Part shown: positions 3,001-45,285 of the stretch, in pieces | Layout of the letters: each line of letters begins with the position of its first letter | How positions within the stretch are numbered: position 1 is the stretch's first letter | Origin: an uncultured Planctomycetales bacterium | GTDB taxonomy: Bacteria > Omnitrophota > Gorgyraeia > Zapsychrales > Fredricksoniimonadaceae | NCBI GenBank assembly: GCA_964572155.1 | Contig: CAZNDZ010000001.1 | Location: 207,300 to 271,299, forward strand | DNA: 64,000 nucleotides | Direction: 5' to 3' | The notes under the pieces: model-generated | The model's database searches: none | Seen by the model: the letters and a program-made list of their open reading frames with translations, nothing else | What the model was told of the DNA's origin: nothing | Position numbers and translations under genes: made by a program

Positions 3001-6000
3001 CCGTCTTGACTTGCAATAACGCTTCTGCGCCAGACAAGGTTGCTGATACGCCTGTCACATTGCCTTCGAAAATTTCCATGACTGGGTTTTCATCGGTCAC
3101 GTGAGATGTAACGACGATGTCTTCGGCCTTTAATTGATCTTCTGGATGTGCGGCATTGTATTTTAATGTTTGGACAATTTGATATGGCAATTGGCCAAAG
3201 ATTTGATCGAACAATGGACGGCCGGTTCTGTCATTTGGAACCAATTGGCGCTTGCCTTGTGAGTTTGTGCCCACGGTTAAACGCTGACCGATATTTTCAA
3301 CCAACCCACGCAAGATGCTTTCAACCAAATGACGATCGCTCTTGGCAAACTTCTTATATAAAGCTTCACTGACTAAGAAATCATTCTCGCCGGTTAAGCT
3401 GTTTGGAACCAATTGTTGATTGTTCCAAACCATTTCTTCTTTATGATCTAAGCCTTCCTTTGTTGGGGCGAACTTAAATTGCACTTCGCCGTTCTTCAAT
3501 AAAGCCGCATAGATCTTTTTAACTTGGACATACAAATCTTTTAAGACAACATTGTCCCCAACGCTTTCTGGCGCGGAACGGATGAACGTGGTTTCAAGCA
3601 AGATAACGTCGTCGATTTCATCAACGATCGTGACGCCAGCTTGTTTAATGTTATTGATACCTGCTAAAACTTCTGGGTTATCCTTAAATTGATTTGGCAA
3701 ATGGCCGCGTGGCGTTAATGAGATAAGCTTTAACGTGTCATTGTCATTTAAGGCATTGGCGACATCGTCTTCTCTGGCCTTGATTTGATCTTTGATCTTA
3801 TCTAAGGCTGTGCCCTTTGGATGTTGTTCATTTTGACTTGCTTGGTGCGCCTTGATCAAGGCGTCCATATTGGCTAACTTGAAGTCTTTACCGATGCGTT
3901 GTCCGACTTGTTCGGCCAAGGCTTGGAAGGTGATGCTGCCTTGAGGCACAATTGGTTCTTGGAAGAACTTGGTTAAATCGTTTTCTTCACGCACTAAGAT
4001 TAACGCTGGGGCGCCTGCGGCCATATAGCTTAAGGCGGCCATGAACTTAGATAATGATTTACCTTGCGCGTTTGGTGCGATCGCGATGTTCATCTTCACA
4101 AGCTCGCGGGCAATCTTGACTTGGGCTTTAAATTTATCCGCATCGAAATTGCTTTCGGCACCTAAGATACTTTCAACCGTATCAACAACTTGATCAAAGG
4201 CAACTAAAACAGCCTTGGTGTCGACAGACATTGCATGATCGCCCATGTTGAAGTTGTTGCGGCCGTTGGTCTTGATGACATACATGCGGGCATCAGCAAC
4301 CTTGATATGTTGTTCTAAAATCAAATTGCTTTCAGATAATGAGACATGTGTTCTGGCATTTTCTTGCTTATCAATGCTGCTAGTACCAGCGCTGATGGTG
4401 ATCATCCAACGATTTAACTTATATTGGCCATTGTTGACAGCGTCTAAAGCTTCACCAAGGTTAGCAAATTGTTGCTTCAAATCTTTCAACGCGACGGCAT
4501 TTTGTAAATGGATTTGATAGATCAACGCTTCATATGGCTTTGATGTGTCGTTACGATCTTGCTTACTCAACGCGTTTACGATATTTCTCTTATTTGATAA
4601 TTCAGGAACCGTGACATTGTCAGCGATGTGCTTGAGCAAACGGGTCATGAACGCTCTTGCATCTTCTGTATCGATGTTTGGCAAGACAATGACAAATTCT
4701 TCGCCGCCATAGCGTGCGACAACGTCGCTGGTGCGGGTGCGGTATTGTAAGGCTTGGGCTACGGCTTTTAAGACATTGTCGCCTGTGCCATGACCAAAGA
4801 CGTCGTTGACAGCCTTGAAATTATCCACATCAACACCGACGATCACATCGCGTTCATTGCCTGCGTTACGCACTTGGGCATTGATGATACGATTGAATGC
4901 TTTTTGTAAACCACCGCGATTAGTCAAGCCCGTTAAATTGTCTCGGAAGTTTTGATTGTCTGCTTGAGCTTCATACAAAGCCTTTGCCGTAATCACGTTG
5001 CCTGGCACGCCAGTGATTTCATATAACGTTTCTACGTCTTGTTCGCTTAAATGTTCAATGCTTTGTTTTTCTGGTGTTAAGAAAATGTATTGTCCTGGGT
5101 TTCCAGATGCTTTGATCATACGAATATCTTCAGCGCTAATGACTTCTTCAATGACTTTATCCTTATAGTAGGATGACAGCATTGGGTAGTTGGCAATGGC
5201 TTCTTTAATCAAGCGCTTCTCGCTGCCCGTGCTATAAGCTAAAACAGCCGTGATATTGTTGTCCTTGGCATAGGTCAATGTATCTGTCACAAGCTTGCCG
5301 ATCATCGCTGAATCAGCGTCGCTGACAATGCGACCTTCTTGGTTCATGGCAGTCTTTGTAACACTCATCGCTTCAGAAAGATTTAAGATGACAGGTGCTG
5401 TTGGTGGCATAACATTTGGAGCTGGCATCATTGGTGTTTCAGGAACGATGGCAGGCTCGCCGTTACCAAAATCATCGCCGAAGCTGTTTGGTGTATCTTG
5501 TTGTTGATCCATCACAGGCACTTGATATTGATCATCACTTGTCGCGGCTTCTGGCATGGTGATTTCTTGAGCGACAGGTTGTGCCACCTTGATCGCTGCT
5601 GGCTTAGCACGTTCGATCATCAATAAGCTCTTCACATCAGCAAAGCCCTTACCTTCGTTTAAGGCAGCGACAATTTCTTGGGCTTCAGGTTGAGCAATCT
5701 TCCAGCGCATGAACCATTGAATGGATGCTTGTGTGGCTTCCGCTTTTTCAGCTGCGTTCATTGCAGCATCCATACGTTCTAAATGTAAGGCCCTGTAAGC
5801 ATTAAATGTTTGGGCATCGACCGCTAAGATTGAATTCTCAGATGCTTGTTTCGTTGTGCTTTCAAAACCAAGTTGTGCAACAACCGCTTGCACAATTGCT
5901 TCGGTTTGATTGGCAATGTCTGCTGGCATTTCTTTAACATCTTCGGAATCATTATCGCCAATTAAGACAACCCCGATGATTTGTTCTAAGACACGTTGAC

Positions 6001-9000
6001 GATCGGTATATTGTAATTTTTCTAAGCCCTTACCCATCGCAACCAACGATGCGACAATCGCTTGCTTATTATTCCAAGCCAATGGCGCAAATTGTTCTCT
6101 TAAATACGTTCTTAATTCAAACAAAGCCGTAAAATCAACATCTTGAGCAAAGTTATCTGCTTCGGTGAAATCTTTACCGAATAACTTCAAGGTGCGGTGA
6201 TTGTAAAATTCTTGAACCTTCATCGCCGCATCGGTCATCTTACCTAACTTGTATTCAACCCATGTCTTATCATCCGCCCATTTATCCGTGATACCACCTG
6301 ACGAGGTAACGACGGAAGAACCGACTTGGGCTTTTTCTTTGCGGACTGGTTGAGCGCGATTATTGTGGCGATCTAAGTTTGCTTGTGCGCGATCGAAAGT
6401 TGCTAAGACACGTGCGATAGATGCATTGTCTAAAATTTGAGCACGAACTTGTTCTCTTACCGTTTTAGCTGTTTGTGCAAAATCAGGACCAATTTTCATC
6501 AAAAGATTAAAATAGCTCTTATCCGAGATTGTAGGATCAGCTCTCTTAACTTCTGCACGTAAATTCTTAAATTCACGAGGAGCAATTTGTGCGTAATCTT
6601 TTTGTGGAGCTGCTTGCTTTTCTGATCGCAATCTAACGGATTCTGCTAATAATGTGTCGTTGTGAACGCTAGCTGCTTTTCTAGCTACGTTGACAATTGC
6701 AGGAAGAGTTTCAAGCGCGTGCTTCTTTGCATTTTCCATTAAGCTACCAAAGACCGGAGCTAATTGCGCTGGCTTAACTTTCCAGACATTGACATTAGGT
6801 TGAATTGTTCCCTTAAGAATATTTTCAAGTGATGCATTGATTTGTGCATTCTTGGTGAAGTTATATGCATCTACCACGACGATAGGTTGATTTCTAGCAT
6901 CTAAGGTAACCTTATAGTCAATGCTTTGAACACCAGCTTGGCTTTCTTCGCTAGATTCTGGCACAACGTAATTAGCTTCATATTGATTGGTCTTAGGAAC
7001 ATAGACTACATCAACGGCTTTATCATTGAACTTTAACTGCGTAATAGTCGTTTGGTTTAATTCCGCATATGGCGTTAACAATGGCATGATGTTGGCAATA
7101 TTGTTTGATCTAGCGCTTCTAATTTGCTCAACAATGATGTTTAATCTGCTGCTATCGTTGATGCCCATATTTCTAAAGATAACCTTTAACTTATCTAAGG
7201 ATGTGCTTCTTAAAACTTTTTCATCAATACCTTTGATGGTCACAACTTCTGGCATGATCATGGCTTGGTCAACGTTTAGTTTAGCTAAAGTCTTACCAAT
7301 GACTTCTTGATCAATTCCTTCTGCAGACTTGAGAACCTTATATAGTGACGCTAATTGTTCTGGCGTGAAGACTAAATTACCGGACACCTTGTTAAACATC
7401 TTACGATTCTTGACCACTATAGGATGATTTGTGTCTAACTTATAAGCAACAGGCTTAACATCGCCTGAGGTTGTGATTTCATAGGTTACTTTTTGAATAC
7501 CGGCTTTTCCTTCATCACCATCAACCGGCACATTATGTTCCGCAAAGTATGCTTTTTTGTTTACATCAAATGTTGCTGCTTCAACAACTCCATCTAATGT
7601 CACGCTCTTAATAAAATCATTGTTTTCTAAAGCAGGATATCCAGCCAAAACCGTACTAATAGCTTCTGGGCCCTTAGTGCGCACATTTTGAATTTGTTCG
7701 AAAATGTTATTTGCAATCCATAAATCCAAACCAGTTGCTAATATAGCCCTCTCTAATTGCTTTGGTGTGGCATTCTTAATGAATGCTACGTTAGTTACTT
7801 TTTCTCTATTAATTTCAGGAGCCATTGCTGAATCAACGTTCGCTTTTGGAGCCTTGAATGCATTGCTGATGATGCCGGCAAAAGTGACACGTTTTGTTTC
7901 CGAAATATCTGGCTTGACCGTAGCAGCATCTTCGATGCCTAATAAATTCTTCAACGCAGCCATGGCTTGGTTGGCGGTGGATTGTTCTGTATATGCTGGC
8001 AATGTAGTGACTAAAGCTCTGAATATTTCTTTACGTCGTTTTTCTGTGGCAGACTTAAATTCATTGTTAGTTTTTAATGAATCGGTCAGTTGTTTAATAG
8101 CCTTAACATTGGCCGTTAATTCGTCTTGATCAGAAATAATTCTTGCTACCTTTAATGTTAACGGAATAGCTATTTTGCTATCGATATCTGTGTCTGAGTA
8201 GACAACGCTGTTAGCGAAGATTTCTTGGCTTGCTTCTATTAATACAGCTTTAAGTAAGCTTGGGCGAGCGGCTAATTCAGAGAGAACTAATTTATTAAAT
8301 GCTTTTGTATTTTCTTTTGTTGGGTTACTGCGGGTTGCATCCCATAAATCCATCACTTCGTCTCTTTGACGAATTTCCTTGATGTGCTGTGTGATGATTT
8401 GCTTTTCATCATTCGAAAATTTCTTGCCCGTCATCATTTGTAACTTTTCAATGATGCCTTCTTCACGATATGTTACAAACACATTGTCTTTAGCAAATTG
8501 TTCGATTAATTTCTGATCGTTTAAGAGTTGTGCTGCCCATTTCTGGATGCCATTTTTTACTCTTAATTCAACAAGGGCTGGGAAGCTTGCTTCTGCTTTA
8601 AGTCTTTCAACAGGATTATTTATACCTGAAACCACTTTGATGGCTTTTTCAATCGCTTGACGATCATTTTCATTAACCTTCAAGATGGCTGGTACTGATG
8701 TTTGATCAATTACCTTGATTTCTGGTTTAAGTGCTCTTAAATCATTCATCGCTGTTTGCGCGAAGATCTTGCTGATTTCTTTGAGATCCTTTGTTGGAAC
8801 TTTTTCAACTAAATGCAACGAGGTCTTCATTGCGATTAATTCTTTGATTTCGTCTTTCTTATTTGTTGCCTTAAGCGCAGCGATCACTTGATCGTCTGTT
8901 GCTTTTGGCATAACACCTAATTTAATGCGAATATCAACATCATCGATAATTGCTTTATAAATACCCGTATCTTTTGCCAATGTTAAATATCGACCCAACA

Positions 9001-12000
9001 TATCTTTTTGTGCCTTAGCCGCGGCATTATGTTCTGCCAATGTCTTTGGTTGATTTGGCGTTGTATCTTCAAAGTTTGGTTTTGTATCAGCGAACTTAGG
9101 TTCAGTTGTCGTACGTTCTTTTGGTTCTTGCTTGTTGCGTACTCTGGCTGTCCATGCAGTAACAGCTAACATTAAACCTGCAACGGCGAGGGTAATAGGC
9201 AATGTGTGTTCTTTAATTGCAGCACCGATCTTGGCACGAACTGATTGGCTGCGTTCTTTAATTTCCGCTGCTCTGTCTAAAATACGTTGGCTTGCTTCTT
9301 TAGTAGCTAATAATGTTTTATCGCCTTGCTCGATGACTCCCTTAGATGATTCTTTGATTGCCTGAGCAACAGCTTCTGTTTTCTCAATAACGTTTCCAAT
9401 GAATGTTGGTTCTGGTTTAGAGATATCATACACGGCGACATTGGCATTCCCGCTTGCTGGCACAACTGCGGTTTTTCCATCTACAATTGTTTGTGAATTA
9501 CCTGCAAGACCTGCCGCCAAAGCAATAGCGCCGATCTGCAAGATTCTTTGTGTTCTGTTTTTATCGTCTGTACCAGGCTTTACAGCTGGTTGTTTAGCAT
9601 CAGCCATCATTTGAGCTTGAGGCTTTTCAACTTCAATCTTTTGACCTAATTTTTCTTCTAGAGCAGCAATGACCGCTTGTTTGCCTTCTTCTGTAATGGC
9701 ATTGCGATACAAGTTCAATCTGGTTCTATAGAACAGCTGATCTTTTTTATCTGGAGCGCTAACGCTTAAAACTTCAACATCATTTAATGTTAATGGACCT
9801 TGTGTTGTCGTTGCTTCAAGTTGAGCAGGGACTGTTTCTGCGATGCGATCAACAACAACTGGTTTGAATCTTTCAACTACTTCAACAGGAAACCCTTTAA
9901 GTATAGCCAAGTTAGTTAAAGCTCTTGCAGCAATTTCATGACTTATACGATTACGTTCTCCGAGATTCTTGATCTTTGTTAAATTGTTATAAATTAAGTT
10001 GGCCACATTATTTTTGGTGTCTTTATCCGCAGGGATCTTGCTTGCTTCACTATAAAGCTTATCGTTGCTAAATGCGTCTGCATGTTCAACGATCGCCATC
10101 ATGATTTCTTTAGTTCCCTTATCAGCGGAATTAAATGCTGACAGTAAACCTTGAACCACATTCTCTTGAATTGGTTTTCCACCATAACCAGAAGTAATTT
10201 GAATAGCTCTTGTTTCTTGAGCCTTAGGGAGTCTAAATGCATAAATTAAACCTGCAGCATGCTCCACATCTCGTTCAGTTACCATCGCATTATCTTTTGA
10301 AGATCTTAAAGGCGTTGTTAAATCAATGTCTTCCCAAGCAGCAAAAGCTGTATTTTCTTCGGTTGGTCTTGTCTTTAAGGTATTTAATATGTTTACTGAA
10401 TTAGGTGTTTTGCCTAAGCGTACTGCAACGTTATCTAAAAATTTGATTTGCTCTTCACGATTTGGTAATCGTGCCAAATTACTTTTAATTAATTTTCCTG
10501 TCGGTAAAGCTTCAATGTCCGCAACTGTAAACGTTTGTTCTTGGATAACTTTCTCATAGATACGGGCAACCTTACCACCCAATGCTTTTTCTGCAGCTTC
10601 CGGAGAGATAGCAATTTGTCTTTTTGCATTGCGTACCGTGAATGCATCTAAGCCATTGTCCAACCCAAATTTCTCTGCCAAGAATGTTACTTGTTCCTTG
10701 AAGCTTACCTTCTCGACAAACTTAATTCTTTGTTCGCTATTTGAAGCAGGAGTATTAATATTTACAACCCCCACAGATGAAGGAACAACTGCATTAAGGA
10801 CATTTTCTTCATCATTAGAATCATTTAACACCGCCGCCATCGCAGCATTGCTGGTTTGCATGATCTTGATATTTGGATATGCCGCTTTAACAATTTTATC
10901 AAATGCCGCTGGGCTGATTTCTGTGCCGTTGACGACAATGCTTTGAATCACTGGTTGCAACGTGCCCTTAACTTCATAATTAACGGCGGTGACGCCTAAT
11001 TCTTTTTGGGTTGGGGTTGGCGCCATCTTCATGATGGTTGCTTTGACTGTTTCTTCGCTTAAGAGCGCATCGCCTGCTTTTGCTTCATATGTCTTTGGAG
11101 TAAACGCCGTCGCAGATTGTGGTTGAACTGTTGTTTGGCGGATGGCTGCAACGACGGGTTTTAGACCGGCATCTTTTTGCATCTTTTGATTTAAAGCGTT
11201 TCGCTCTACGGCATCTTGATGATTCTTAACGAAGACTTGTTCAATCTCTTTCCATTTAGCGGCGTATTCTGGTTGGATTAAAGGCAATACAGCTTGCAAT
11301 TCTTTTACAGATCTCTTGTTTTCTTGATACGCACGAACACGTTCTTGCATCGTTGCAACATCAGCTAACCATGCTGGCAATTCACGTTCTATTAATTGTG
11401 TATCATTTGGATTGTATCCTTGTAATACTAAGAAATTGCGCGCAACGTCCATTAAATTAACATCTTGATCTTTCACTGACTTGCCTTGTGCGTCTACCAT
11501 TGGAACAACAGCTTTGGCTTGCAATTCTTTAATAGATTTTTTATTAGCTGCTTCATTTTGTGGATCTACAGCTTCAAAGCTATGAATCATTTCGTGGGCA
11601 AAGACAATCTGAACATTTTTTACATCTGGATTCTCTGCATTTACATGAGCAGCGAATAACGCCGCAGGTTTTTCAACAGTCCATTTGCCATCTGTCTCTT
11701 TGATCAGACCATTGTTAACAAGCAAGCTTGTGAAATTCTTTTCTTGGCGGGTTAATTCATGATTGCCGCGTTTGGCATCATTTAAATATGCAACAACTGT
11801 CTGCGTTGTTAAGTTTTCACCAGCAAAACCAACCGTTCCTGCTAATGCTGCAGGGACGATGTCGCCAGCTTCATATTCATTGCCTTGGCCTTCTTGATGT
11901 ACTTCCGCCCTGCTAAACATCTGTCTACCGATACGGTCATCGACGATAAACCCATAAATATTATCAGCGATACGATACGCTTGAATTGCTTTAGCACCCT

Positions 12001-15000
12001 CTGCAATTTGTTTCGCTGTCGCTTCAAAAGTCTTCTTATCCTTTGGAGGATCTGTAGAGATGGCTGATATTGTTTCTGCGTCGGCTAATTCTTGAACCTT
12101 TTTCCATATATCACTTTGCTTATGTAAAGCTGCTGCATACTCTGCTTTCACGTCAGCAAACGTATCTTTCATTTCATTCTCAAGAACCTTAGGATCACCA
12201 GTGACACTCGCAATTTGACCATCTTTATCAATATTAACTGTATTGACTGTGCCATTTGTCTTAATCTTAAATGTTCTGCTGCCATCTAATTCTTCCACCA
12301 CAGGATCAACGTTATTCTTTAAAACAGCTGCAGCCATACGTAACGTTTGTGTATCTTTTTCTGTTAAACGGCTATAGCGAACATTTTCTAACAATTTCGA
12401 CATCGCTGGATCATTAATATATTTCTGAGTAACTTGAACCAGAATATCACCCAACGCAGTTTTATGTTCCATCATGCCAACTGTCTTGCGCAACATTTCT
12501 TTAGCTAGCTTTAATTGCTCTGTTCTGTCCATATCAACGACTTTTCTGTCTTGATACATCCATGGCAATTTTAATGTGAAATCATACAATGGAGCTTGCT
12601 GATTATCTAACACCTTGATTTTAGCATCCAGCAATTCGTTGGCGTGATCAACAACATCTGCTGTTTCACTATCAGCATGGATGTCAATTAAGCTATCTGT
12701 TTCTGGCTTGTCTAATGCTTGTTCGACAACTGTTAAAGCACCTGTAGCTGCTTGATAACTTGCTGCAGCAATGTTGCGACTTCTTTCAAAAACTTTTGCA
12801 GCTTCTTTAGTAAATGTATTGAAACCTTCTTCATCGCCCAATTCCTTAGCACGGTAGGCATTCTGCAATTTACCTGAACCTTCAATGATATGCGTATAGA
12901 TTTCACCAAGCGCATAACCTTGAGTATTGTAAATACCGCGATTAAGACCTTTGTTCAAATCATTATGAATATCAACACGTGATGGACCAGCAATCATAGG
13001 AGCTACTTTAGCCATACGCGCAGCACGATCGAAAATGTGAGCAATTTCGTGATCAGGAACGCCTGCTTCTGCAACTTTCCAACCCATACCTAAAACATAC
13101 AACATTGCATTTGTACCTAATGACAAGGTTTTATTATCCGCCAAACCTGCAGAATTTTTCATCTCCATGGAAGGATCAAAAGCAACGCGCATGTTTTTGT
13201 TTTGTAACAACGCTTCTACTTGTTGTTTGGCTTCTGCAATAACCGCATCTTTTTGTTCTGGTTGAGCTTCGTCAGCAAGATAGAATTGTTGTTCGGCTTG
13301 TTCTCTAAAACCATTTTCTGTAACGTTTTGACCCATCAAGGTACGTATCATGCCTGCCAAACGATTATTGACACCGTTATTGTTCTTAAATTCTAGAACT
13401 GGCATGCTGCCTTTTTTATCTGCTGGGAGCGTCTTTAGGTGTTGGACTAATTCAGCAGCATTCTTTACATTCTCTACAGGTGCGCCATCTATTGTTACGA
13501 CTGAATCAATGCCATGGCGTGCAGTAACTTCCTTAATCTTAAAAATCAATTCGGCAAGTGGTTCTGGTGCAGCATTTTCATTGCCGCTTAATACATCACG
13601 ACGCTGATTGGCATAACGCAAATCATCTTCATATGTTTTGATTTTAGCGATCATTTCTTTCGAAGCGATCTTCATGCCTTGTTGAGCCACTGTTTTAGGA
13701 TCAAAGCCCAATGTTTGTAAATTTGATTGCCAAATGTTTGTATCGGGAATAACCACATCTCCTGCGGCATCTATGGTTGCGATCTGATCAATGAACTTAA
13801 CGGCTTTTAACTTGCCTGTATCACTGTAAACCCCGCCATTCTTAATAACGTCGCCGGCTTTGAAATCTTCAAATGCTGATGTAGCCACAACCACTTCTTT
13901 ATCTTGCCATGTATTGTTTTCTGTAGAAAATTCATAACGATGTTCTGTTGGCAAGCTCACTGTGACATTCTTACCTTCATAGGACACTACTGCTTTAGTA
14001 GCGTATTTAGCTTGCACAGCAACTTTTTGACCATTTGAATCATTTGAAACACGCGCCACTGCACCGTTAATTAAAATGGCCTTAATGTCTCCGTTCTTAG
14101 CTTTTACTTCCCAAATTTGTTCGTGATTGCTGTTATTATCTTTACGTTCTAATTTATCGGTGCTTTCAAATGCGACTAAATCATTACGTAAGCTTCTTCC
14201 AGGATTCACTAAGGTTGTTTTCTCATTCTTTAATTTCTTTGTTGCTTGATCAAAGCTCCACTCACGACGAATGACTAAGTCATCGCCACCGCGTTCTTTA
14301 TCGAAGAAAACGCGTAATTTAGCAGTTGTTTCTAAACGAGCCTTATCTGCTAAGCGCATCAATTGACCTTCCATCAATACCGCTTCGACAGCGTCATTCT
14401 CTATATTGTGTAACGTTAAATATTCTTCCTTGGTTCCTTGAACACTGCCAGGAGTAGCGCGGTACGTTGTCGTGTTGACAATTTCCTTATTGGTGTCTTT
14501 TTGGGTAATCGTTACTTCAGGACCAAACTTAACACCGTGATAATTAGCGTTGTAAATGGCTTGACGTGTGATTTCAAATGTTTGATTCGTGTTCGTATCA
14601 ACAACCTGTGATGTATACTGTCCAACATAATCAGCGCCTTCAGGTTTTACTGCAATCATGACTAAACGTTTCTCTGTGGAAGCCGTATTAACATCAAAAC
14701 CTTTATCTGCATTTGTACGCAACACATCTTGTTCGGTAATAATATGACTAAACACTGGTGTGTCGCTTCTATTCCATTCTTCAAGGCTATAAACTTTACC
14801 TGTTTCTTTATCCCACACGCTATTTTCTAAAGTAACTTGGCCATAATCACCAAACGACTGATTGCTATCGAATGTGACTTTGTTGGCACCGACAACAACA
14901 TAACGGTCCGTAGTTTTTTCAGTAATAGCTACAGGATTCTTGTCGACAATGAGTGCAGTACCATCGGAGCGATGAATCAAGGCTTGATTTTCTCTAACTC

Positions 15001-18000
15001 GTACTGTCTTTCCATCAACAATTTGTTCATGTTGGCCAGCAACATTTTCCGTGTTGTGTGCAATGGCTCTTTCTCTATTAACTTGTTCTGTTTGAGCAAC
15101 AGCTTTATTAACCGCGGCTTCAACAACAACATCCATACTTCCGCGGATAGCTAAATCTTCGGATCTTTCTTGAGCAATTATTTCTAATTGTTTGCGTAAT
15201 TCAATTTGCTTTTGCGCTACAGGAGCTTTTGATTGTTGAATCCTATCTAATCGTGCTTTTTGTGCATCACTTAAATGAATATCAGCGTCAAGCAAAAGTA
15301 AAACTTCCGTTTCTTTCGCATTGGTACGTTTATTAGCTCGATCAAAAATGCTATCTTTTACATAAGAACCGAAACGAGCCATCGTTTGTAATAAAGAGGA
15401 TTCTGCGCGAGCGCCAATAATAACATGTTTTGCTTGTATCACATTATCAACGACCACGGACTTTGCTTCTACAGAACCATCGACTTTCTCCACACGTACA
15501 TCTAATTTCATGTTACGACCAAATGTTGGGTTGACGCCTTCTGTCATAGATGTCAAAACTACCATTTGACCAATTTTCTCGCGTGCGGCTTTTGCAGCCA
15601 CAGCTTTAAGAGCTGTCTCGTACGACATCCCCCCATTAGCTTTACGATATTGATTAACATCCGCTTGCTTTATTTCAATGGTGCCGACTCTTTCTTTCAT
15701 TGTTGCACCCACTGCTTTACCAACACCATCTGTTGCGTTTTCTGGCTTATAAATAAAAATGTCGTCTGCTTTGATGCCCGCGCTTTCCAAGAAAGATTTT
15801 ATTTTGGCTTCGCCGCCATCTTTTTCTAGTCTATATCTATCAATCAAACTAGTTAACATTGAAGTATTGATCAATAGAGCCGTGTCGTTTTCGCCACGTT
15901 CATACGCTTCTTGATAACGTTTTGCTACATCTTTTAAAGCAGCTTCATATGCTAGATCAACATTGCCAGCCTTATCGCTTGGAAGCGCCATAACGCGTAC
16001 TTTATATTCAAAATCTTTAAACTTTGGAGCTTCATGTAATTGGTAGAATTCTGTGCCCATGTTGCGCATGGCTTGGGTTGATTCACCTGGAGAACCTGTT
16101 AACATAACTGTGCGACCACCGCTTGCGCGTACTAATTCCAATACATCCGCACCTGTAGACTTTACCGATTCTTTTCCGTCTACGTGACGTGCCCATAATT
16201 GCAAACCATTGTCATTAATTCTGCCGTTTTCTAAAATCTTTAATGAGCCTCCTGCTAATTCTGTGCCGGAAGCTTTTTCATTAGCATAGTGAGCCAAAAT
16301 TACTTTCGCTAAAGCATTGACGCCATCTTTATCAGAGAACAAACGATTAAGAGCTCGTTCACCGTTAGCAGTTATTTCGTACGGATCATAAACAAGCACT
16401 CTACCGTCGTCTTTTACTTCGAAACGAATTGTTTTGTTTTCAATGGCGCGATGCAACCACGCTGCAGCTTCAGCATATCGGGCAAAACTTTCAGGTTTTT
16501 CAACAGATTCAGCACCAAAATAAGTTTGGATGTCCTTTGCGCTTTCTTTCCACAACGCATCCATCATATCCTTAGATAATTCATGACTATCGGATAATGT
16601 TCTAATGCCTTGTTTCTTATTGGGCGTATTCTTCTGAAGATTTGCGGGACCGCTAGCTCTCATTAGTTTATCTAAATTACCCATAATGCGAACCAACGCG
16701 CCAAAAGTATCTCTTTCACGTTCTTTAATTTTTGCCCCGTCTACTACGCGTTCATCCCATTCTCTAACCTTTGCAACGCCCGCATCATGTGATCCACCAA
16801 TAATCATGGCTGGCGATGTATAAAATAAATGTGCTTCATCAGCAAATACAATTGCATTTTTAAATGGATTAACTTCCTTTGATCCACCCTCCACGGTCTT
16901 TCGAGCTAAGTCAACCATTTTGGCTTGGGTGTACGACATAACAATGACTTTGCTTGGGTCATTAATCTCAAATTTATCGCCAACGCTTTTAATGGTTGAA
17001 ACTTCAAAACCATCTCTATATTCATCTTTTTCATATTTTGACGTTAAGTTATCTTGGGTTACTAAAATAACCTGCTTGTCAGTGTTGCTTTTAATAATTG
17101 GCATTAATTGATCAACGATGTCTGTTTTACCACCACCCATGTTCAAAATTGCTGCCATCATGGCACTGTCTTTAGGTTTGCTACTTAGTGTAAAATCAAT
17201 GAGGCGTTCAACAACAGCGGTTTGCCCAGCATTGAACTCTAAACCTTTGAAATCTTTTGCGGGCTTAGCCAATGTCTCATGCCAATTCTTAAAGAATGTA
17301 TGCATGATCTCACCAGTGGTCTGTTTGCTGCCACTTTGTTTCGTTTCTAATTTTGTACGTACAGCTTTTACAAAACTTTGTTCTTCTTTGGTTTGAGGAG
17401 TAGGCTTTTCTGCAGCTGCTTGTGTAGATTCACCTTTGGATTTACGATACTCTTGCAACGCTCTTTCTACGATCTTTGTAACATCATAAGTAGGCGTATT
17501 TACAACTTGTAATGCTCTAAATTCTGCTTCTTCACGCAATTTTGTTTCAGCAATCGCTTGTTCTCTCGCTTCTTTCGTTGCTAATTTTGGAGCTTCAACG
17601 CCAAAACCTTGCATGTAAATATCTTCGGTTTTTACAACTTCACCTCTTGTATCACCGTGACCAGCTAACCCAATCGTCTTAGCAACAATGTCGGTGGTCA
17701 ATGTGTTTCTGGCATCTCTGGCTGTAAAACGTCCAATTAGTGCTTCAACTTCTGTTTTGGCTAATTTTTGTTGTTGACGCGCTTCTGTGGATTCTCTAAC
17801 GGGGGTGGCTACCAATGCATTATCGGCGGCGCCGATATTTACAACGCGCACATCAGATGGCAATTCTTTTGGAGGAGCGCGGGATTCAGAAACGCCTCTT
17901 TGAGCAGAAGCACCATACATTGCAGCCGCAATATCGTGAGGATCCTTGTTACTCTTTAAACCTTCTGGCGTTTGCTTCAAACCTAATAAATCCATTGTGC

Positions 18001-21000
18001 TAGCATCTAAGTTCTTTATAGATCCGTTTTCAGCTAATTCAATGCCTCTGGTCGCACGTAATTCGCGCATTTCGTGTAATGCAGCATTGCTGTCTTTAGC
18101 GACAATGATAACTTCACGAATACCATCAGGATGTGACAATACAACAAAAGCCCCATCTTTACCGAGCATTTGAGCTGCATCCGCATTTTTGTAATAACGA
18201 ATAACTGTTGTAGGATTGCCTTGCTTGTCATTTAACGTTCTAACAGATGTTGCTTCGCTTTGATTTGCTACATCAACAATTTCTGCAGCAGATGCGCGAC
18301 GTTGTGTGTCATCAGCCTTCTGAATGCTATTGTCTTTTGCGCCAATAGCAACTACGGCAACATCACCTCTTAAAACTTGTAATTGTCTAATCTGAAGATC
18401 TGTTTTTGAATCTTCTTTGGCTATCGCTTCTCTTAAAATTGCATCAACAGGTTGTGCGGCTTCAATCTTTAAGCCTGAAGCCTCTACTAAATGTAACGCC
18501 AAAGCTTTATTATAAAGTTGGCCTGCTGTTGCGCTGTTCCCTTCAACTTCAACCGCTTTACTAAAATGTTCATAAGCCTTTGTATAAAACTCTCCGGCTT
18601 CATTTTCTGGTCTTGCTGCACCTTCCCGAATAGCTAATTGACCTTCTAATGTATTCAAAGTGCTCTTTAATTGAGGTGATTCGAATAATGATATACCATC
18701 TAATTGTTTTTGAGCTACATCTAAATCTTGACGAATTTCTGCTGTCTCTCTACCGCCAGATCTTTCCATCATGGCAGAAGCGCGCATCAATCGTAAGCTG
18801 AGATTAGATTCATCACGGCTAAGGCCTTCTGTTGCTAAGCTAATGGCTTGTTCCAAATGCTTGCTATCTCTGACTCTGTGTTCTAATAAGGTTCTGATGG
18901 ATCGTTGATAATATGTAGAGCTTTCTTGGGCAGCCAAACGACTAATTGTTTCAATGTGGTTGGCGCCATTCTTTTTGGCAGTTTCAACCACAGCATCAAT
19001 ACTGATACGACCACCTTCGGCTGGGTTGTTGCTTAGAATTTTAATTTTAGCGATGTACGCCGCTGCATCTTTAGGTGCTATAGAAATTCTTTCTCCTAAG
19101 AATTTAATACCTGCTTCCGTGCTGCTTTCATTTCGTGCAGATTCAATTTGTGCTTGTTGAGTTAGAATATCAGCACGTTGGGTTACATTATTGATATCAT
19201 CCCTATTTTTTGATTCCGCTAAATTCTTATTAGCTGCTTCAAGAGCAACTACCGCTTCGGTTTGTAAACGTTCAATTTCTGTTTTATTAGTTGTTGCATT
19301 TTCCTTCTTTAAAGCTTCAATGTTTCTCGTTTTAGCTTGGGCTAAAAGTAAATTACCGCGAACCGCGTGCTCTGGAATTGCAATTAATTCTTTGGCAAAC
19401 TTGGCCATGTCTTCAAATTTATTCTGGCTGGCAGCATAACGAATTTGATTAACTATGCGTTCAACAGGAATTGCATTTTTAAATTGTTGAATATTCGTAT
19501 AACCAGCATTTAATTTACCGAGCGCCCCTAACTTACCTTGGTAGGCGTTCGCTGCTTGTTCCAAATAATTATCTTGGGCTCTGTAAGCTAACCCCACTTC
19601 AGTTGCGGCAACTGCTAGGGTTGGGCCTGTGACATTTGCAATATTTGGATTCTTATCTGCAACTTCAGCAGTAAATCCTCGAGATACTAAATCAGCTGCT
19701 TTTGCACCTTCAGCTAATGCTGCTAATGTTAAAGCGTCTCCACGAGCTTCTGTGCCGGTTATACTAGCAACTTTATCCATTAGTGTTTTATAAGCTGTAT
19801 CGCGAATGTCTTGTGCTTGTTTATTAATGTCTGCTTTTTTATCGCTTGTTGCAGTTGTAGCTGTCTTCTCTAATTCAGTAGCGCGAGATAATGAATTTGT
19901 ATAATTAAGAAATTCGGCTTCGGTGTTATTCTTCCCGGATAATGCCATCGCACGATTGATACTTGATTGAGCATCAATCGATCTTCCTTGAGACATAGCT
20001 AAACGCGCATCGGCAATTGCTGTTTGCGCTTCAGTTGCACCGGCAGGCTTTAACATCAAACTATAGAAGGCGATGGTTTGTGCTTTCTCTTGTATCTTTG
20101 CAGCAGCATAAGCATCAGCGCTGTATTCAATATCTAATGCATTTGTATAACCTTGTATTTTCGCTAACTCAACGCCTTCATCACGTAATCTTTTTTGTAA
20201 ATCTTTATCTTTGACCAAGACACTATGAGCAATATTTTCAGTTGCATCCAATTGCAATATGGTTATAGGTAATGCATGACCTTTAGTTGCAATGAAATTA
20301 TAAGCTTGTGCTTCATACTTAGATGCACCTTCCGTAAAAGCTTTTAGTGGCATTTGACCTAAAGGTAGCAGAACCCCTATCGTACGACCCATCTCCATAC
20401 CACCTGAAACATCTCTTGCTAACTTCTTCATCAAGTCGCCTGGCTCAATTGCTTGGCCAGTCATTAAATTAGTAGCGAAATGTTCTTGATATGCACTCTC
20501 TACAGTGCCTCCGTTTGCAATCACTCGGACAGGCACATCAATCATACTCCAAGCTGGCATCATTAAACCAAAATCAGTTGCTCCAACTACAGATAAACGT
20601 GGGACAATCATAGGATTCTGAGCAATGCGTTGTAACATGGACATGTCCCCAACCGGACTACTTGACCATTTTCCAGTTTGTGCCCAATTATTCATACCTT
20701 GTCGCATTAAACTCAAACTACTTAAACCTGCACCGGCAACAGCTCCATATAACATGTGATTTAGACGACGACTATCTAATACGTCGGCACCTTTTAACTT
20801 AGCGTCGGCAAATGAAATAGCAAATCCTGCAGTAGCGCCGAGACCCATGCCCGTTCCAACTTGTGCTGCTATTTGTGTTTTAGAAAGAATCGCTGGAGTT
20901 TTTTGACCGGCGGCATTAATAATTGTTGGATGTGAGAAAGCATACCTCAAAGCACCTGAACCGGCAATTGCTCCAATAGCGGCGCCACCTGCAGTATATT

Positions 21001-24000
21001 TTAGGAACGATTCAACGCCTTGCTCATCACTTCTGGCCCATGTGAGAGCCCCTACACCGCCACCAATAGCAGATCCAGCAACGATGGGTTGAGATAAGGT
21101 TGGAGATACGGCTTTATAAAAGGCTGAATCTTTTATTTTTGCAATCGCGGGAATTGAATTGCTTAGCTCTTTCGTAGCAATTGCTTCTTTAGTACCAAAT
21201 CTTGCGGCTGTTTGGCGGAATAAATTTGAACCAGCCCAGGTAGACGCGCCATTGACCAAATATCGACCTGTAAGTGTTCCTATTGCTAAATCACGCCCTA
21301 ACTTTGAGAACGTATACTCTCCGCCATCATTTATTAAACCGCCGCCGACAGAAATAGCACCATAACCCGCGCCATTTACCCATGGAGATACCCCTACATT
21401 TTTAGCGGCTGCTAATGCCTTAACAGTACCAAAACCTGCGCCTAATGCTAAGCCAACCCCTGCATCTTTTGCAAAATTTTGGGATGTAAAATAATCACTC
21501 CAGCTGCCGTTATAGTCAATGCCTCCGCGTAATGTATTGATAGCCGCCCCGCCTAAAGAAGATGGTATTGCAGAACCGATTGTTCTCAAAGTGCTTGCTG
21601 CCATCGAATCATTAACTAGAAATTTCGCAAATCTTGTATCATTGTTAAGGAGTTTTGTTGTGGCTATCCATCCATCAGCTCCGGCTACACCTCTAGCTGC
21701 AAAAGCCAACCCGCCTGAAAACACACCATTTGCTTTAGCAACATTGACCGCTGTTACCATGGCATCATCAAAACTTGCTCCGTTAGCGTACATATTAACG
21801 CCGCCGATGACGCCGCCTAAACCAAAACCTGCCACATTGCCTACAATAGCTGTCTTACCTAAATTAGAAATTGCATTAGCTGATGTTACTAATTTTCCTG
21901 TTCCAGAAATTTCACTAGCAACAGAGGCTTTTAAAATATCTTGTGCAGCTCCAGTTAACAAACGCGCTGAAATTCCGCCTTCAAGAGCATTTGCTAATGG
22001 CATTGCTTTGGCTGCATTTGCTGTCGCAGCAACTCCCTTTGTAACCATGCCGACACCACCTGCTAAAACTAATGCTGCATTCGCGCCACCTAGGATAGAA
22101 ATATTAGAAACATCAAGGGAATCACCTAATTGTTCTGATGCACCAAAATAATTACGTAATCTGTCTTTGAAGATTGTTTGACGTCCTTCGCCTTTATAAC
22201 CGTCTGTGAAGAATTGTGAGAATTGTGTGCGTTCTTTAAAGACATCGTGTGCTAAGACAGACCAATATTCGTTGTCTCCTGTTTTGATCGTCATTGGTGC
22301 TGTAATTGCTTTACCCGTCGTTAAATCAAAGGCTTGATTAGCTCTGCGAGTAAATTCACCTTCTTCTAAACTATCACTACCTTTGAAGTATTGACGTAAG
22401 AATGAGTCATCTTTAGCAACAACAAGAACTTTATGTTGTCCGGAATTAATGTCTGTACCTGTGATAACTTTGACGTCTTTACCACTATAATAACCAGATA
22501 AGTCATTATTGGCGGAACCGCTAGCATTGGTCACTGCAACATTTTGTAGAGCGAAGCTAACATTGCCGTATTTATCTTCATTCATACGGTACATAACGTG
22601 ATTTACTTTATCGCCGTCTTGAGCAGAGAATCCGTATACAGCATTGTTATAATCAACCTTTGTTGCTGTGCCAGCCGTTGAACTAAATGAGCCGTTTTCT
22701 TGATTAAACGCAACTAAAAGTTCGTTCTTTTTACCTTTATCATTAACTGAGCCGTCTCCCGTTAAAAGTGCATAATCTGGAGTAACTAAGCGCGCTTTAG
22801 CAACATAGTCTTTTTCGCTAACTTTAGGTTTTCCTTCTTCTTGTGGAATGCCTTTAGCATCAATAACAGCAAAGCTACTCTTCATTGCAGATTTTTCGTA
22901 TAAAATATTAACGCCAACTTTGCCGTCAGCCATTTTCGTTAACTCAACATCTTTAATGTTATGTATGCCATAGCCTTGTCCTGCTAAAGCTTTATATGCT
23001 TCTTCTTTTGTTAAACCAAATGTTTCAAACTTTTGTTTTAATACTTGTTCTACTTTGTTTTCTGGTTTTTGTGTTGACGTTGGATCTGTAGGTTTTGTAT
23101 TAATGGTAGACGTATCTGCCAAGCTTCCTATGAATCTAAAGCCCCAAGCACGACCACGAGTATCGGTATTTCCAGCAGCTTTCCACTCATCATCTGTTGT
23201 CAAGAAACCAAGCCCAACTGCTTTAGCGTCGTATACGCCACTTAAGCCGGTCATTAAACCTTGCGCATTTGTCGTCTGTGGAGTGAATGTTTCAATCTTT
23301 CCACTGGTTACATTGAAATCACCCGCTTTAGCTTCTGATAAATTAAAATTAGTGTCTATTAGCCCAGTAAATGCTCCCTTGCTATTTACATTTAATGGTT
23401 CAACAATATTCATGTTGGTCCATTTCTTACCATCTTGACCAGCAATAATTGTTTGACCATCAACCGTTAAATTGTTAACACGTGCAACAAGGCTTTCTGT
23501 ACCTAATAATTGGAGATGCCCGCCGATGACTTTGCTGCCAGTTGGTGTCATATATGTTGGCATATCAATCAGCATGACGAGTGCATCTGCTTCACCAGCT
23601 TTTCTTGCTAAATCAACATTTGACTTTACTGTCAAATCAACGCCTTTTGCTTCATCTTTAACCACTGTATCACGTTGAGAATTTAACGGGGCAGCTTCGG
23701 TTACATTACGACTGAGTGTAAATGCTTTTGTTTGGCTTAAATCATGGGTTAAGGATCCATCCCCAATTTTAAAGAATAATTTACTGGTGGTAGAATTTGA
23801 ATTTAATACAGCATTAGCAACATTTAACACTCCGGCTTCTTCAACCCCGTTAACATTCGTAGGCTTTTTAGCATTTCTAAGATCTTTAATTGATACGGTG
23901 CTATATACAGCTTCATCACCTATACCACCGCGAATACCTAATACATTGACATTTTTGGCTTTAAACTTAGGATTGGCTAAATTATTTTCAATAACACTTA

Positions 24001-27000
24001 ATGGATTTGCTTTAGCTTTTAATGGATTATTTTTATCCGATGGATTTGCTTCTAAATTTTGATCGATCGTAATCCCGTTTACGGCTGCTACAGCTTTGGA
24101 ATTTGATTTCTCTTCGCTGGGCTTCTTATTCGTAACGTTCTTATCTGAAACATCGCCTGTACCTAGAATCCAACTCTTAGAAACTAAGCCTGACCCATCA
24201 CGTTTAAAGCCATCTAATTTTGCATTGAGCGTCTTTCCATTCTTAGAATTAATTTGTTGTTCTGTACCGTATGCCTTTACACCACGCATCCAGGCGGGCA
24301 CGAAAACATCACCATTATCTTCCATAAACATATAACTATCAGGGCCACCATTAGCTTCAACAGTGAATTTACTTAAAGTAGTGTCATACGCTTTCTTTCT
24401 GTCTGTTTCAGTTGCATCAAATGACTTACTTAATACTAAGGTAGGTTTATAATCCAAATACTTGGCTATAATAAATGTCTTGATCGCACCGTTCTTAATG
24501 TCAAACTTATTTGGGATCTTGGTCAATGTTCCGTGATCAACAAACCATTTTCCGTCGATGATATCAACACCAATTTGAGGTCTACCTTCTTTGGCATTTG
24601 TCATTAACACAGAACCATCAGCGCGGGCAAGATTGTTATCAGAAAGGATACGGATATAGTGAGTGTCTTGAGCTAAACTATTGGTACCCTTTGACCAATC
24701 ATCTGTGAAACCTAAATAACCATCTGTTAATCCCGCCCCTGACATACGATTGTCTTCGTATTGTCCGGAATATTTGCCCAAAAATTCTGTGGCAACTTTT
24801 TTATCATTAACGCCATTGACTTGTACGGGTGTATACTCTCCATTTGCATTTAAGCTTCCATCTAACTTTACCAATGTGTTTGGATCGTTTTCATTCTTTT
24901 CAAGTGTACTTGCGCCACCAGTACCACCTTTTTGATCGGCGGCAATTTTCAAATAATATGAATTCTTTGTCAGGTTGATCATATCCCATCTTGAACCCAA
25001 CGTTTTCTTTCCATCTCTGGTAATAAAAGCTGCATTTGTTTCGTAGACATTCGATCGCTCGCCATCTTCCATAACTTTCTTAACATGCGGCATTAAAATT
25101 GCTGTTTGTACACCGTCTAAGTATACAGACCCTGCGATGTTCTTAACTTTTCCCGCAACTGTATTAAATCCTTCAATGGCGCTCCCTGCTTCTCGTTTAT
25201 CTCCCGTGGCTGTCAAAACTAATTCTTGCTCTACTTCTGATTGAATCTTGGTTTCTTGTTTTAACTTGGCTTCAAGACCTTGTGGACCGAAAACGGAAAC
25301 ATCATCGACCAATTTAGATTCTTTCTTAAATCCTTTTTCAAATCTAATTGTTGGTGCGGAACCAGAAATTAACGCAGGAAGAACATTCTCTTCTCCGCCT
25401 TTAGCAAACTGTTCTGACAATTGAGATTTCGAAACATCCGAACCATTTAAATTGTATCGATTAACACTGCCATCTTTACCAACAACCACGTATTGGTTGG
25501 TTGCTTTTGCGATAGCCCCATTGAAACTGTAGTCTGAATTTGTTCCTGTAAGAACATCCTCTTTACCTTGCGCATCTTTGTAACGAAATACGCCATGATT
25601 TGTAAAGACTCCATTCTCACCGATCACCATGCGTTGATTGTATGATTTGCCATTAACATCAAATGTGCCGCCGGCTGTTGCCGTAAACATTTCTGGTCGA
25701 CCATCTTTATTATCAACAAACGTACCCGTCGCATCGTTATAGATAAATCTCCAATTTCCCTTATCATCAACAGATGCATCGCCTTGACTAAAGCTTGCTA
25801 AACCTCGAGCACTCTTGCCTTCTAACAGCGCGCGCTCAGCAACAGATCCATCTGATCCTGCAGCCTTCGAAAGATTTTTACCGTACTCATCAGCTGGCAC
25901 TGCAGCTTCGGATAAATCCGTTTTATTTTGTTTATAGTTTACATCGCTCATCATCGCAATCACATCAGGCGTCTCTTTGATAAATCCATTTTTTCCATTC
26001 GACAATGTTAAAACTTGCCCACCAATAATTTCTCCACCAGTCCTTCTGTTTCCATTAATATTAACACCATCAATCCTTGCATATTGGGAACCAGAGAGAT
26101 TAGGCATGTACACACTTGTATCGCCAACGCCTTCACCACGAGAACGCACAACCGTTAAATCATTGTTCTTTTCAAAGCTTGGACTAAACGTTAACAAGCT
26201 ACTATAAACACGGCCTTTGTTTGGATCTTTGCCATTCTCAAGAGTACCTGTCAATGAGAACACGTTTGAATTCGTTTCGCTTTCGCCGGCGCCATAATTC
26301 ATTGTTTGACGCGTAGCATTAACGCCCTTCATGCTATTAACAAACTTCACGGAGTCTTCACTATATATAGCGCTTAAAACTTCTTGATTAATTCCTTCTA
26401 AGATTGATCCTTTGGATTTATTAATCGCTGCTACGATTGCAGGATCAAATTCACCGGCATCTTCTGTCATTGCGCTTAATTTATTTTTAACACCATAAAG
26501 CTTTTCACTAACGTCGGTCATCTTGCCATTAACTTTAAGGAAGCCAAATTGATTAAACGAATCCGTGCTTGCTTTATATGACCAGCCTTTTGACATCTGC
26601 CCATTTGCTTCATTCAAATCACTTTGAATCCAAGAAGCCTCACCGCCACCAAGCGAAACAACTTGCGTTGCGCCATTACGCGCTTTCTTAGGATCGTTTT
26701 GATCCCATTGACCACCGTAGGCGCCGTTGTTGGATGAATCATAAATCTTTAAGATGTCGCCGCTGATACCTGTGAGAGGATTCTTTGAATATGTATTTGT
26801 TAACTCTTGGGTGCCGATGATTTGACGGTCGATGATGTTGACGCCAGCTAAACCTAAATCACGTTGGAAACCTTCATTAATAGAACTGCCGCCTAAAACC
26901 ACTTGTCCTTTAGCATTTCTAATCGCTTCATTCGCATTGGTTGTAAACTTAGCTTTACTTTCTTCATCTTTTTCTGTTAAACCAAAACTTTGTCCATCAC

Positions 27001-36225: not shown

Positions 36226-37164
36226 TTAGTTGCCACCCAGCTTTTTAAGCGGGTTATTTTGGAAGAAGTCTAAGAAAACAGGTCCGGCAACCAAGATCCC
36301 AACCACTGGAAAGATAAACAAAAGTAATGGGATGAGCATTTTAAGTGGGGCTTTCATGGCCATTTGTTCGCCGCGGCGAAATCTTGCTTCGCGCATGTCT
36401 TCGGATAAGATGTTGAGCGCTTCACTGACTGATGTTCCCATGCGGTCAGCTTGGATGAGCGTACGCGCAAAAGTGGATAAATCTGGTAAATCATATTTGC
36501 GGGCCATGTCACGCAATGCGTCGCGGCGTGGTTTGCCGACATTGATCTCTTGGATCATGTTGCGCAATTCTTGGATGATCACCGTCGGCGCAGATTTTTC
36601 AATCACATATTTTAATGCCATCATAAAATCAAGACCTGCATTAACGCAAAGCCCTAAAAGATCGACGGTGTCAGGCAAATCGCGCACCATGGCATCGCGA
36701 ATTTTGCTAATCTTCGACTTGAGCCAAAAATCTGGCAGGAAATAACCAGCACCAATCGCGACAAAAATACCCATCATAAAACCTTCGTTGCTGGGCTCGA
36801 TAAAAATAAACACAACCCAAATCAACGCAAAGATCATAGCTTCTTTAAGCAAGATAAACTCTTCGGGACTAATCGGCACGCGTGCCATGCTTAAATCCTT
36901 CGCGATGCGTTGACCCAATGCTCCGACGACAAATGGCTTATTAAACACCGCAAAACGGGTGCTCATGTCTGAAATAACAAAGGCTAACCCTGTTTTCTTA
37001 GCTGTTCTGCTTTGTGGCGCGGCAATGCCTGTAACGGCAGGATCAGCCATGGGATCCATGTTTAGCGTCGGACGAAATACAATTTTAAACGGGATAAACA
37101 TGAGGCCTATGGCCATCACCGTCATGAACGCAAACAATAATCCAACAAATAATAAAGCTGACAT
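36226..37164 (-). CDS. tadC: Tad pilus inner-membrane platform protein (T2SS-F domain), TadC-like
   Basis: 312 aa with an N-terminal TM, a cytoplasmic T2SSF-like domain (...DLPDTVDLLGLCVNAGLDF...) and C-terminal TMs. It follows a TadB-like gene, in the usual tadA-tadB-tadC order. Confidence 0.7.
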   Translation of the reverse strand: MSALLFVGLLFAFMTVMAIGLMFIPFKIVFRPTLNMDPMADPAVTGIAAPQSRTAKKTGLAFVISDMSTRFAVFNKPFVVGALGQRIAKDLSMARVPISPEEFILLKEAMIFALIWVVFIFIEPSNEGFMMGIFVAIGAGYFLPDFWLKSKISKIRDAMVRDLPDTVDLLGLCVNAGLDFMMALKYVIEKSAPTVIIQELRNMIQEINVGKPRRDALRDMARKYDLPDLSTFARTLIQADRMGTSVSEALNILSEDMREARFRRGEQMAMKAPLKMLIPLLLFIFPVVGILVAGPVFLDFFQNNPLKKLGGN

Positions 37165-38027: not shown

Positions 38028-38039
38028 CTTTATTTACCT

Positions 38040-38375
38040 TTATCTATTTGAACAAAATGCTGTCTGACATTCTGTTTTAACATCATCTTCACAAGCATAA
38101 TTGCCAGGTGTGCACGATTGAACTTTTCCTTGATAACAGGTGGCGTCATACCAAATGCCATTATTCGCATCAAGCTGTGAATAATCACATTCGACCGTAT
38201 TGCCATTATAGCGTCGACCCATCCCAAACGCATCGCCGCTTTTCTTCCAACTACCGCCAAACGCGCGGATCACATACGGCGAGATCACAATCATCCCACC
38301 TATGACGATTATAACCAATGCCATGTATTCCACAATAGATGCTGCTGTTTTTTTACGTAACATGATTATGGACAT
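38040..38375 (-). CDS. Flp/TadE-type pilin-like protein with a 7-Cys C-terminal domain
   Basis: Class-III signal-peptide-like N-terminus KKTAASIVEYMALVIIVIGGMIV, then ...VECDYSQLDANNGIWYDATCYQGKVQSCTPGNYACEDDVKTECQTAFCSNR. Confidence 0.6.
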   Translation of the reverse strand: MSIIMLRKKTAASIVEYMALVIIVIGGMIVISPYVIRAFGGSWKKSGDAFGMGRRYNGNTVECDYSQLDANNGIWYDATCYQGKVQSCTPGNYACEDDVKTECQTAFCSNR

Positions 38376-43709: not shown

Positions 43710-43712
43710 AAC

Positions 43713-44440: not shown

Positions 44441-44543
44441 ATCATCTCTAAATTTGCTTGAATATTATAAGCCCTAAAGGGGGGATATCGCTATCCCCCC
44501 TTATAAGACTTAAGACACCTCTTAACAAAAACACCTTAAGAGA

Positions 44544-44876: not shown

Positions 44877-44893
44877 TACAACTCCTCCTTGTA

Positions 44894-45262: not shown

Positions 45263-45285
45263 ATATTTCCTCCTTATATGGGAAA

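Follow-up and report, generated by a model that had tools for sequence, protein, structure and literature searches.

A putative SecA-like motor ATPase module deep within a giant protein of an Omnitrophota bacterium

Introduction

Bacteria of the phylum Omnitrophota are ultra-small and predatory or symbiotic, and their giant proteins are among the longest known. How such proteins are made, inserted or exported is an open question, the principal clue in the literature being the SecA-like motors embedded in them. Here we describe a putative motor ATPase module of superfamily 2 (SF2) in a giant protein of an uncultured member of this phylum. The gene was found in a stretch of 64,000 nucleotides of contig CAZNDZ010000001.1 (assembly GCA_964572155.1, positions 207,300 to 271,299), and this whole stretch is referred to below as the window.

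The closest described systems are the Omnitrophota giant proteins reported by West-Roberts et al. 2023 (bioRxiv 10.1101/2023.11.21.568195), most of which contain divergent SecA DEAD domains. In that study, the SecA modules of the giant proteins formed a long-branch clade apart from housekeeping SecA and were devoid of the scaffold and wing domains, and some actinobacterial giants were found to carry such modules as well. The same authors described peptidase domains of the C39 type close to the N-terminus of the Omnitrophota giants, genes similar to those of type II secretion systems (T2SS) in their vicinity, and GGDEF domains common to Omnitrophota and actinobacterial giants. According to a 2026 preprint, the C39 and PF07517 (SecA_DEAD) architecture groups are the two largest among Omnitrophota long proteins, many of which are argued to be membrane-anchored with their bulk in the cytoplasm. 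The original prediction for this locus, made from the DNA sequence alone, had considered motor ATPases unexpected in the middle of such a protein, a view that these reports have rendered outdated.

The locus analyzed here shares with the giants of West-Roberts et al. the Omnitrophota host, a giant open reading frame (ORF) with multiple transmembrane segments, an N-terminal C39 domain, a GGDEF domain and T2SS-like neighbors. As in their modules, a DEAD-type motor is embedded in the protein, an insert occupies the site of the SecA preprotein-binding domain (PPXD), and the scaffold and wing domains are undetected. In contrast to those modules, which were found with the Pfam models SecA_DEAD and SecA_PP_bind, the present one is invisible to both at E=10; moreover, DEAH replaces DEVD, only about 11 relatives are detectable, and the module is separated from the closest hydrophobic segments by more than 1,000 amino acids (aa) instead of adjoining them. 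With >10,169 aa in the window, by which it is truncated, the ORF also falls short of their 30,000-aa class. By its features, the module would best be classed as a hyper-divergent DEAD motor of SecA type, similar in kind to those known from Omnitrophota giants.

Results and discussion

Sequence motifs of the ATPase module

The giant ORF occupies one minus-strand frame that is stop-free over 10,169 codons (30508 to 2), and its 3' end lies outside the window. The gene (2..30457) is thus partial, with the C-terminus past the window start, and encodes >10,152 aa when read from the likely ATG at 30457. Residue numbers refer to the stop-to-stop translation, and all features of the giant gene are on the minus strand. 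The SecA-like SF2 ATPase module comprises residues 4427-5072 (about 650 aa, about 15293..17230), most of which is covered by the interval 15500-17300 proposed originally.

The Walker A string NMGGGKTDIV and the DEAH string IVFADEAHLF, from which the module had been predicted, are located at residues 4456-4465 (window 17143-17114) and 4553-4562 (window 16852-16823), respectively. The two strings start 97 aa apart and Lys4461 is separated from Asp4557 by 96 aa, which is close to, although slightly more than, the first estimate of ~93 aa. The patterns G.GK[ST] and hhh.DE.[HD] each occur once in the whole giant protein, and the pair at a spacing of 60-200 aa was obtained in only 0.05% of 2,000 protein shuffles. 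Owing to this uniqueness and low shuffle frequency, the motif pair can be regarded as real and not as a product of chance.

The remaining helicase motifs, for which a check had been suggested, are present and conserved in the relatives. Motif I/Walker A (NMGGGKT, 17123..17143) is preceded on its 5' side by a Q-motif-like sequence EFNAGQ (17222..17239; E[FY]xxGQ or REYQ in the relatives) and followed by a motif Ia-like strand ILVTQDN (17048..17068). Motif II/Walker B (VFADEAH, 16829..16849) is followed by the strand TSPAMIIGG (16793..16819), which exits lobe 1 and resembles SecA RTPLIISG. Motifs II and III are separated by an insert of ~220 aa (16124..16789, aa 4574-4795), beyond which motif III is found as MLTGSPGES (16079..16105; [TS][GA][ST]xG in the relatives). 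Motif V, VVLTSMTEGVN (15530..15562; TSxxEG in the relatives), is without the Arg of SecA GRG, and motif VI, IIGARAESSLLQTMARFG (15368..15421; Q..[AG]R in the relatives), has one of the two canonical Arg residues. The catalytic residues of the module are clear, namely K4461 and D4557/E4558.

Relatives of the module and their conservation

Among 1.84 billion cluster representatives searched exhaustively with phmmer, 11 relatives of the module were detected. The closest is a 4,901-aa protein encoded on a JGI metagenome contig, whose module is 51% identical, compared with 46% for the remainder of the protein. This ortholog is 45% identical and collinear across aa 291-8234 of the giant protein on a frameshift-broken contig, and its homology runs through the apparent gene junction and also into small ORFs upstream. 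That the ortholog is divided at a natural domain boundary, into genes of 4,901 and 5,461 aa, was considered and rejected, because tblastn shows contig frameshifts. A second frameshifted contig carries relative P0006 and probably P0008, in which collinearity with the giant protein extends over the module and ~1,700 residues downstream of it, at ~24% identity, and the other relatives are fragments. In the contigs with giant genes (JGI 3300056623 and ENA ERZ25039529), frameshifts split the genes into many same-strand ORFs; as a result, the true length of the genes is understated by the database gene calls (4,901, 5,461, 715 and 2,007 aa). No further relatives were obtained from a scan of genome contigs and one of metagenome contigs, and tblastn against plasmids and phages returned no match to the module.

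Motif conservation was judged on a 12-sequence alignment, counting only the sequences that cover each site. G-K-[ST] is present in 6/6 covering sequences (as GGGKT, SGGKT, SDGKS or GGGKS) and the D-E pair of Walker B in 8/8, the motif II Asp (Asp157 of the query) being the sole invariant column. Also conserved in the covering relatives are a TSPAL-like strand after motif II and RxFSDxxxxNA in the insert. Motifs V and VI are conserved among the relatives, yet motif V is without its Arg and motif VI without its second one.

Predicted fold and structural neighbors

An AlphaFold model from the single sequence was of no use (pLDDT 38), whereas AlphaFold2 with the family alignment yielded a model with a pLDDT of 71.9 and a pTM of 0.63. 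In this model, lobe 1 is a RecA-like alpha/beta domain that carries motifs I, Ia, II and III on its strands, with Walker A arranged as a strand, the P-loop and then a helix. Lobe 2 (NBD2-like, 15293..16054) is a second RecA-like domain bearing motifs V and VI and a beta-hairpin insertion. The module is thus predicted to contain the two tandem RecA-like alpha/beta lobes that define SF2. The insert is modeled as a long helical pair, a beta-hairpin formed by IRFEVKDDGRVLVYDP and NRLFSDKDGVNAL, and further helices, and its location between motifs II and III of lobe 1 is the topological place of the SecA PPXD and of the XPD Arch domain. XPD/Rad3 and DinG likewise have an insert between motifs II and III.

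In a Foldseek search against the PDB, SecA occupied ranks 1-7, and SecA or SecA2 accounted for 12 of the top 20 structures (best E 2.4e-8; top query TM-score 0.38, with SecY-bound B. subtilis SecA). XPD/Rad3 (1.9e-7) and DinG (3e-6) ranked behind SecA. Fold comparison gave figures of 13.9 for Hjm, 13.0 for the SecA motor domains (312 residues aligned), 12.9 for Hel308 and 12.7 for DinG. From these comparisons the SF2 fold is secure, with near certainty on our part, and the assignment of the modeled fold to SecA is the best but not an exclusive one. With the Ski2-like Hjm/Hel308 and the ResIII-type HsdR only the generic RecA lobes align (about 260-270 residues); these proteins have no insert at the site of the module's insert, and their winged-helix/ratchet or nuclease domains are absent here.

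The canonical SecA and SecA2 structures (PDB 3dl8_A, 1m6n, 3bxz and 6sxh) resemble the module in having two RecA lobes and an insert between motifs II and III, and they are its top Foldseek neighbors. In contrast to canonical SecA, structure-based identity is about 12%, sequence similarity is nowhere significant, and the helical scaffold domain (HSD), helical wing domain (HWD) and C-terminal linker are undetected, with the Arg residues of motifs V and VI partly lost. Unlike free-standing SecA, the module is embedded 4,400 aa deep in a >10,000-aa protein.

The identity of the module as a DEAH/RHA, SNF2 or classical ResIII helicase was considered and rejected, since Foldseek favors SecA and a large insert is found at the SecA PPXD position. 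Among the families named in the original prediction (SF2 helicase, ResIII or SNF2-like), the SF2 motor in the giant protein is borne out by the two lobes, the conserved motifs and the shuffle frequency, and one relative passes the ResIII model; by Foldseek, the nearest family is SecA and not SNF2 or ResIII. That relative is P0010, a 149-aa fragment of the N-lobe matched by Pfam ResIII with 28.4 bits (cutoff 22.5), and relative P0007 gave a weak ResIII match.

Sequence comparison with SecA

The domain search recommended for this region (DEAD, ResIII, SNF2_N, Helicase_C) came back empty, as no helicase, ResIII, SNF2 or SecA model of Pfam matched the module at E=10, and NCBIfam gave no match either. 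Searches of PDB sequences with the single sequence and the family profile returned only noise, and a word-indexed homolog search found 0 matches for the sequence and 0 for the alignment, though relatives exist.

In order to compare the family with SecA, 11 diverse secA/secA2 genes were collected from E. coli K-12 and from records of plasmids and chromids, and a profile was built from them. With E. coli SecA alone as the target, hhalign found nothing; with the 11-SecA profile it produced one long collinear alignment, at a P value of only 0.2. This alignment pairs GGGKT with GEGKT, ILVTQDN with VVTVNDY, FADEAH with VDEVDS, TSPAMIIGG with RTPLIISG, and the hairpin RFEVKDDGRVLVYD with DYIVKDGEVIIVD. 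The hairpin of the insert falls on SecA 323-338 (DVDYIVKDGEVIIVDE) by both BLASTP and hhalign, in each case at a level that is not statistically significant. The best position of the TSPAMIIGG block on the profile is E. coli 219 ARTPLIISGPA; its likeness to the SecA strand that leads into the preprotein-binding domain is suggestive only.

A block scan followed by a collinear-chain dynamic programme placed 9/11 conserved blocks on homologous SecA elements. The motif Ia-like strand was paired with SecA VVTVNDYLA both here and by hhalign, motif III was chained to GMTGTADTE, the motif V block had its best position at 500 VTIATNMAGRGT, and the strand after motif VI was chained to SRFYLSMED. The module accordingly holds collinear look-alikes of the SecA elements VVTVNDYLA, DExx...TPLIISG, DYIVKDGEVIIVD, GMTGTA, ATNMAGRGTD, ES..Q..GR and FYLSxED. 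As far as sequence goes, these are hints at SecA and not proof.

A SecA-like region in a very large protein was also observed outside Omnitrophota. Plasmid pJCM18538 of Mycolicibacterium arabiense (NZ_AP022592.1 188139-198560) encodes a 3,473-aa hypothetical protein in which one region shares 25% identity with residues 17-597 of E. coli SecA; this agrees with the remark of West-Roberts et al. on Actinobacteria.

Membrane topology

Kyte-Doolittle analysis of the giant protein identified an anchor at aa 57-77, a cluster of hydrophobic segments from aa ~340 to ~1030, Gly-rich segments at aa 2800-3330 and a segment at aa 7103-7121. The 3,766-aa stretch in between (aa 3332-7097), which holds the ATPase module, contains no hydrophobic segment. 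The helix at aa 7103-7121 (9146..9202; Kyte-Doolittle 1.79, uncharged) is the only transmembrane candidate from the ATPase to the GGDEF domain, and it is still hydrophobic in the ortholog despite sequence divergence.

The stretch containing the ATPase would be cytoplasmic because of its dependence on ATP, and the region past aa 7121 would be cytoplasmic because of the intact GGEEF cyclase. If aa 7103-7121 span the membrane once, the ATPase and the GGDEF domain are placed on opposite sides, one of them outside the cytoplasm. The earlier proposal that a large part of the protein is cytoplasmic is plausible, being favored by the absence of hydrophobic segments from aa 3332-7097 and by the intact GGEEF, with the lone helix speaking against it. 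An ATPase and a GGDEF cyclase flanking one hydrophobic helix is an odd arrangement, and it poses a concrete topology problem.

Interpretation of the module

The module has the appearance of a functional SF2 motor, with two RecA-like lobes and motifs Q, I, Ia, II, III, V and VI, and the ~220-residue domain inserted between motifs II and III would reproduce the layout of a SecA DEAD motor with its preprotein-binding domain. On balance, we favor the view that it is an SF2 motor with this layout, related to the SecA-like modules of Omnitrophota giant proteins and acting on polypeptide. Descent from SecA is itself probable. Such a motor would most likely lie on the cytoplasmic side, where ATP may be bound and hydrolyzed at the lobe interface and closure of the lobes may grip and move a polypeptide. 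That it helps to handle or export the giant polypeptide is a more tentative suggestion, made by analogy and from the literature.

It is important to mention the results that weigh against this view. SecA_DEAD (PF07517) and SecA_PP_bind (PF01043) matched neither the query nor 9 relatives, and no Pfam match was found in aa 4001-7000 for a helical scaffold with two-helix finger and a helical wing (PF07516) after lobe 2. Reciprocal hidden Markov model searches of the module family and SecA were negative, and the block-chain score did not exceed that of column-permuted controls (z 1.5, 23 of 300), so that the chain has no statistical support. Finally, the cytoplasmic placement is not proven, because of the one conserved hydrophobic helix between the two nucleotide-dependent modules.

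If the kinship with SecA went no further than the SF2 fold, the module could work on DNA or RNA as a helicase or translocase of the ResIII, Ski2/Hjm or XPD/DinG-like kind. We consider this unlikely, given that SecA structures head the Foldseek list, that the accessory domains HA2, OB_NTP_bind, WH and Helicase_C had no Pfam match in the module, and that the surrounding giant protein is membrane-associated, belongs to a class in which SecA-like modules have been reported and is encoded in a neighborhood without nucleic-acid-related genes. Moreover, all 8 Cys residues of the giant protein lie before aa 1125 and the module is Cys-free, which excludes the 4Fe-4S domain of XPD/Rad3/DinG, whose Arch insert is also in lobe 1. 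That Walker-A-like and DEAH-like strings arose by chance in a non-P-loop fold is refuted by the presence of the further motifs and the SF2 fold, even though the query itself has no direct database match.

The loss of the Arg at the GRG position in motif V (TSMTEG) and of one of two Arg residues in motif VI (QTMARFGS) would agree with a degenerate pseudo-ATPase, in which the SF2 fold serves as a nucleotide-sensing or purely structural scaffold and not as a motor. The extreme divergence (11 relatives among 1.84 billion representatives) and a module identity to the ortholog (51%) that is no higher than that of the rest of the protein (46%) point in the same direction. Against this, relatives only 22-30% identical to the query retain Lys and Ser/Thr of Walker A, Asp-Glu of Walker B, motif III and the Gln and one Arg of motif VI, a pattern expected under selection on catalysis, and we regard degeneration as improbable. 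A similarly small chance is given to an unrecognised SF2 lineage not descended from SecA, with about a dozen sequences all in giant ORFs, that would act in cis as an unfoldase or translocase and supply the Tad/T2SS-like machinery next to it with segments of its own >10,000-aa polypeptide, or with fragments processed by C39. The single conserved transmembrane helix would then part an extracytoplasmic from a cytoplasmic region, a topology not foreseen by standard rules.

Compared with these alternatives, a SecA-type motor remains the favored reading, and the module would then show that embedded SecA-like motors can diverge past the reach of Pfam. As the module is invisible to Pfam, such motors are probably undercounted in censuses of domains ("most encode SecA DEAD domains"), and structure-based annotation is needed.

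Further features of the giant protein

A Pfam scan of the whole giant protein matched only an N-terminal Peptidase_C39 and a GGDEF domain. The C39-like domain (PF03412, E 5.5e-9; 29612..29848, aa 221-299) is located downstream of the hydrophobic anchor at aa 57-77 and could have the giant protein or other substrates as processing targets. It contains a candidate catalytic Cys (HPINCATF) and a candidate His (AHLKGEHF). The GGDEF diguanylate-cyclase domain (PF00990, E 3.9e-30; 4595..4945, aa ~8522-8638) has an intact GGEEF at 4694-4708. Neither tandem DNA repeats in the giant gene nor a second copy of the ATPase module within the giant protein was found. The GC content is 0.44-0.49 in the 3' part of the gene (window 1-6000) and ~0.39-0.40 in mid-gene, and the last ~170 visible residues of the protein are rich in Ala, Ser and Val (17%, 17% and 13%, respectively).

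Genomic context

The GyrB encoded in the window is ~70% identical to the GyrB of Omnitrophota metagenome-assembled genomes, and a dnaA, dnaN, gyrB, gyrA cluster is found at 56376-63702 (minus strand), in which the listed dnaA ORF is N-terminally short (287 aa). Together these genes identify the window as part of an Omnitrophota chromosome near the origin, and, given the cluster, the giant gene lies at most ~30 kb from the probable region of the replication origin.

Upstream of the giant gene, and on its strand, lies a Tad/Flp (T2SS-like) pilus locus (36226..52785, minus strand). It comprises two TadB/C-like genes, eight Flp-type pilin paralogs, a ParA/TadZ-CpaF fusion, a secretin-TonB_C fusion and RcpC. 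The pilin paralogs, an unusually large set for a Tad locus, are eight tandem ORFs of 63-136 aa (43383-46052, minus strand), each of which begins with the Flp-type pilin signature K[GA]Q[ST]xxEY and continues into a hydrophobic stretch. The two fusions are unusual, the one at 47989-50175 (minus strand) joining a ParA/MinD-like (TadZ-like) domain to a T2SSE/CpaF ATPase and the one at 50156-51910 (minus strand) joining a secretin to a TonB C-terminal domain. Three ORFs in or beside the locus (32104-36162, 38366-41842 and 42047-43438, minus strand; 1,352, 1,158 and 463 aa) had no Pfam match. The gap between the pilin and ATPase genes is occupied by a 493-aa ORF (46160-47641, minus strand) with only a weak match to HTH_32 (homeodomain-like, transposase-type). 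Directly upstream of the giant gene start, a divergent gene (30930-32099, plus strand) encodes an AAA_14/DUF4143 ATPase.
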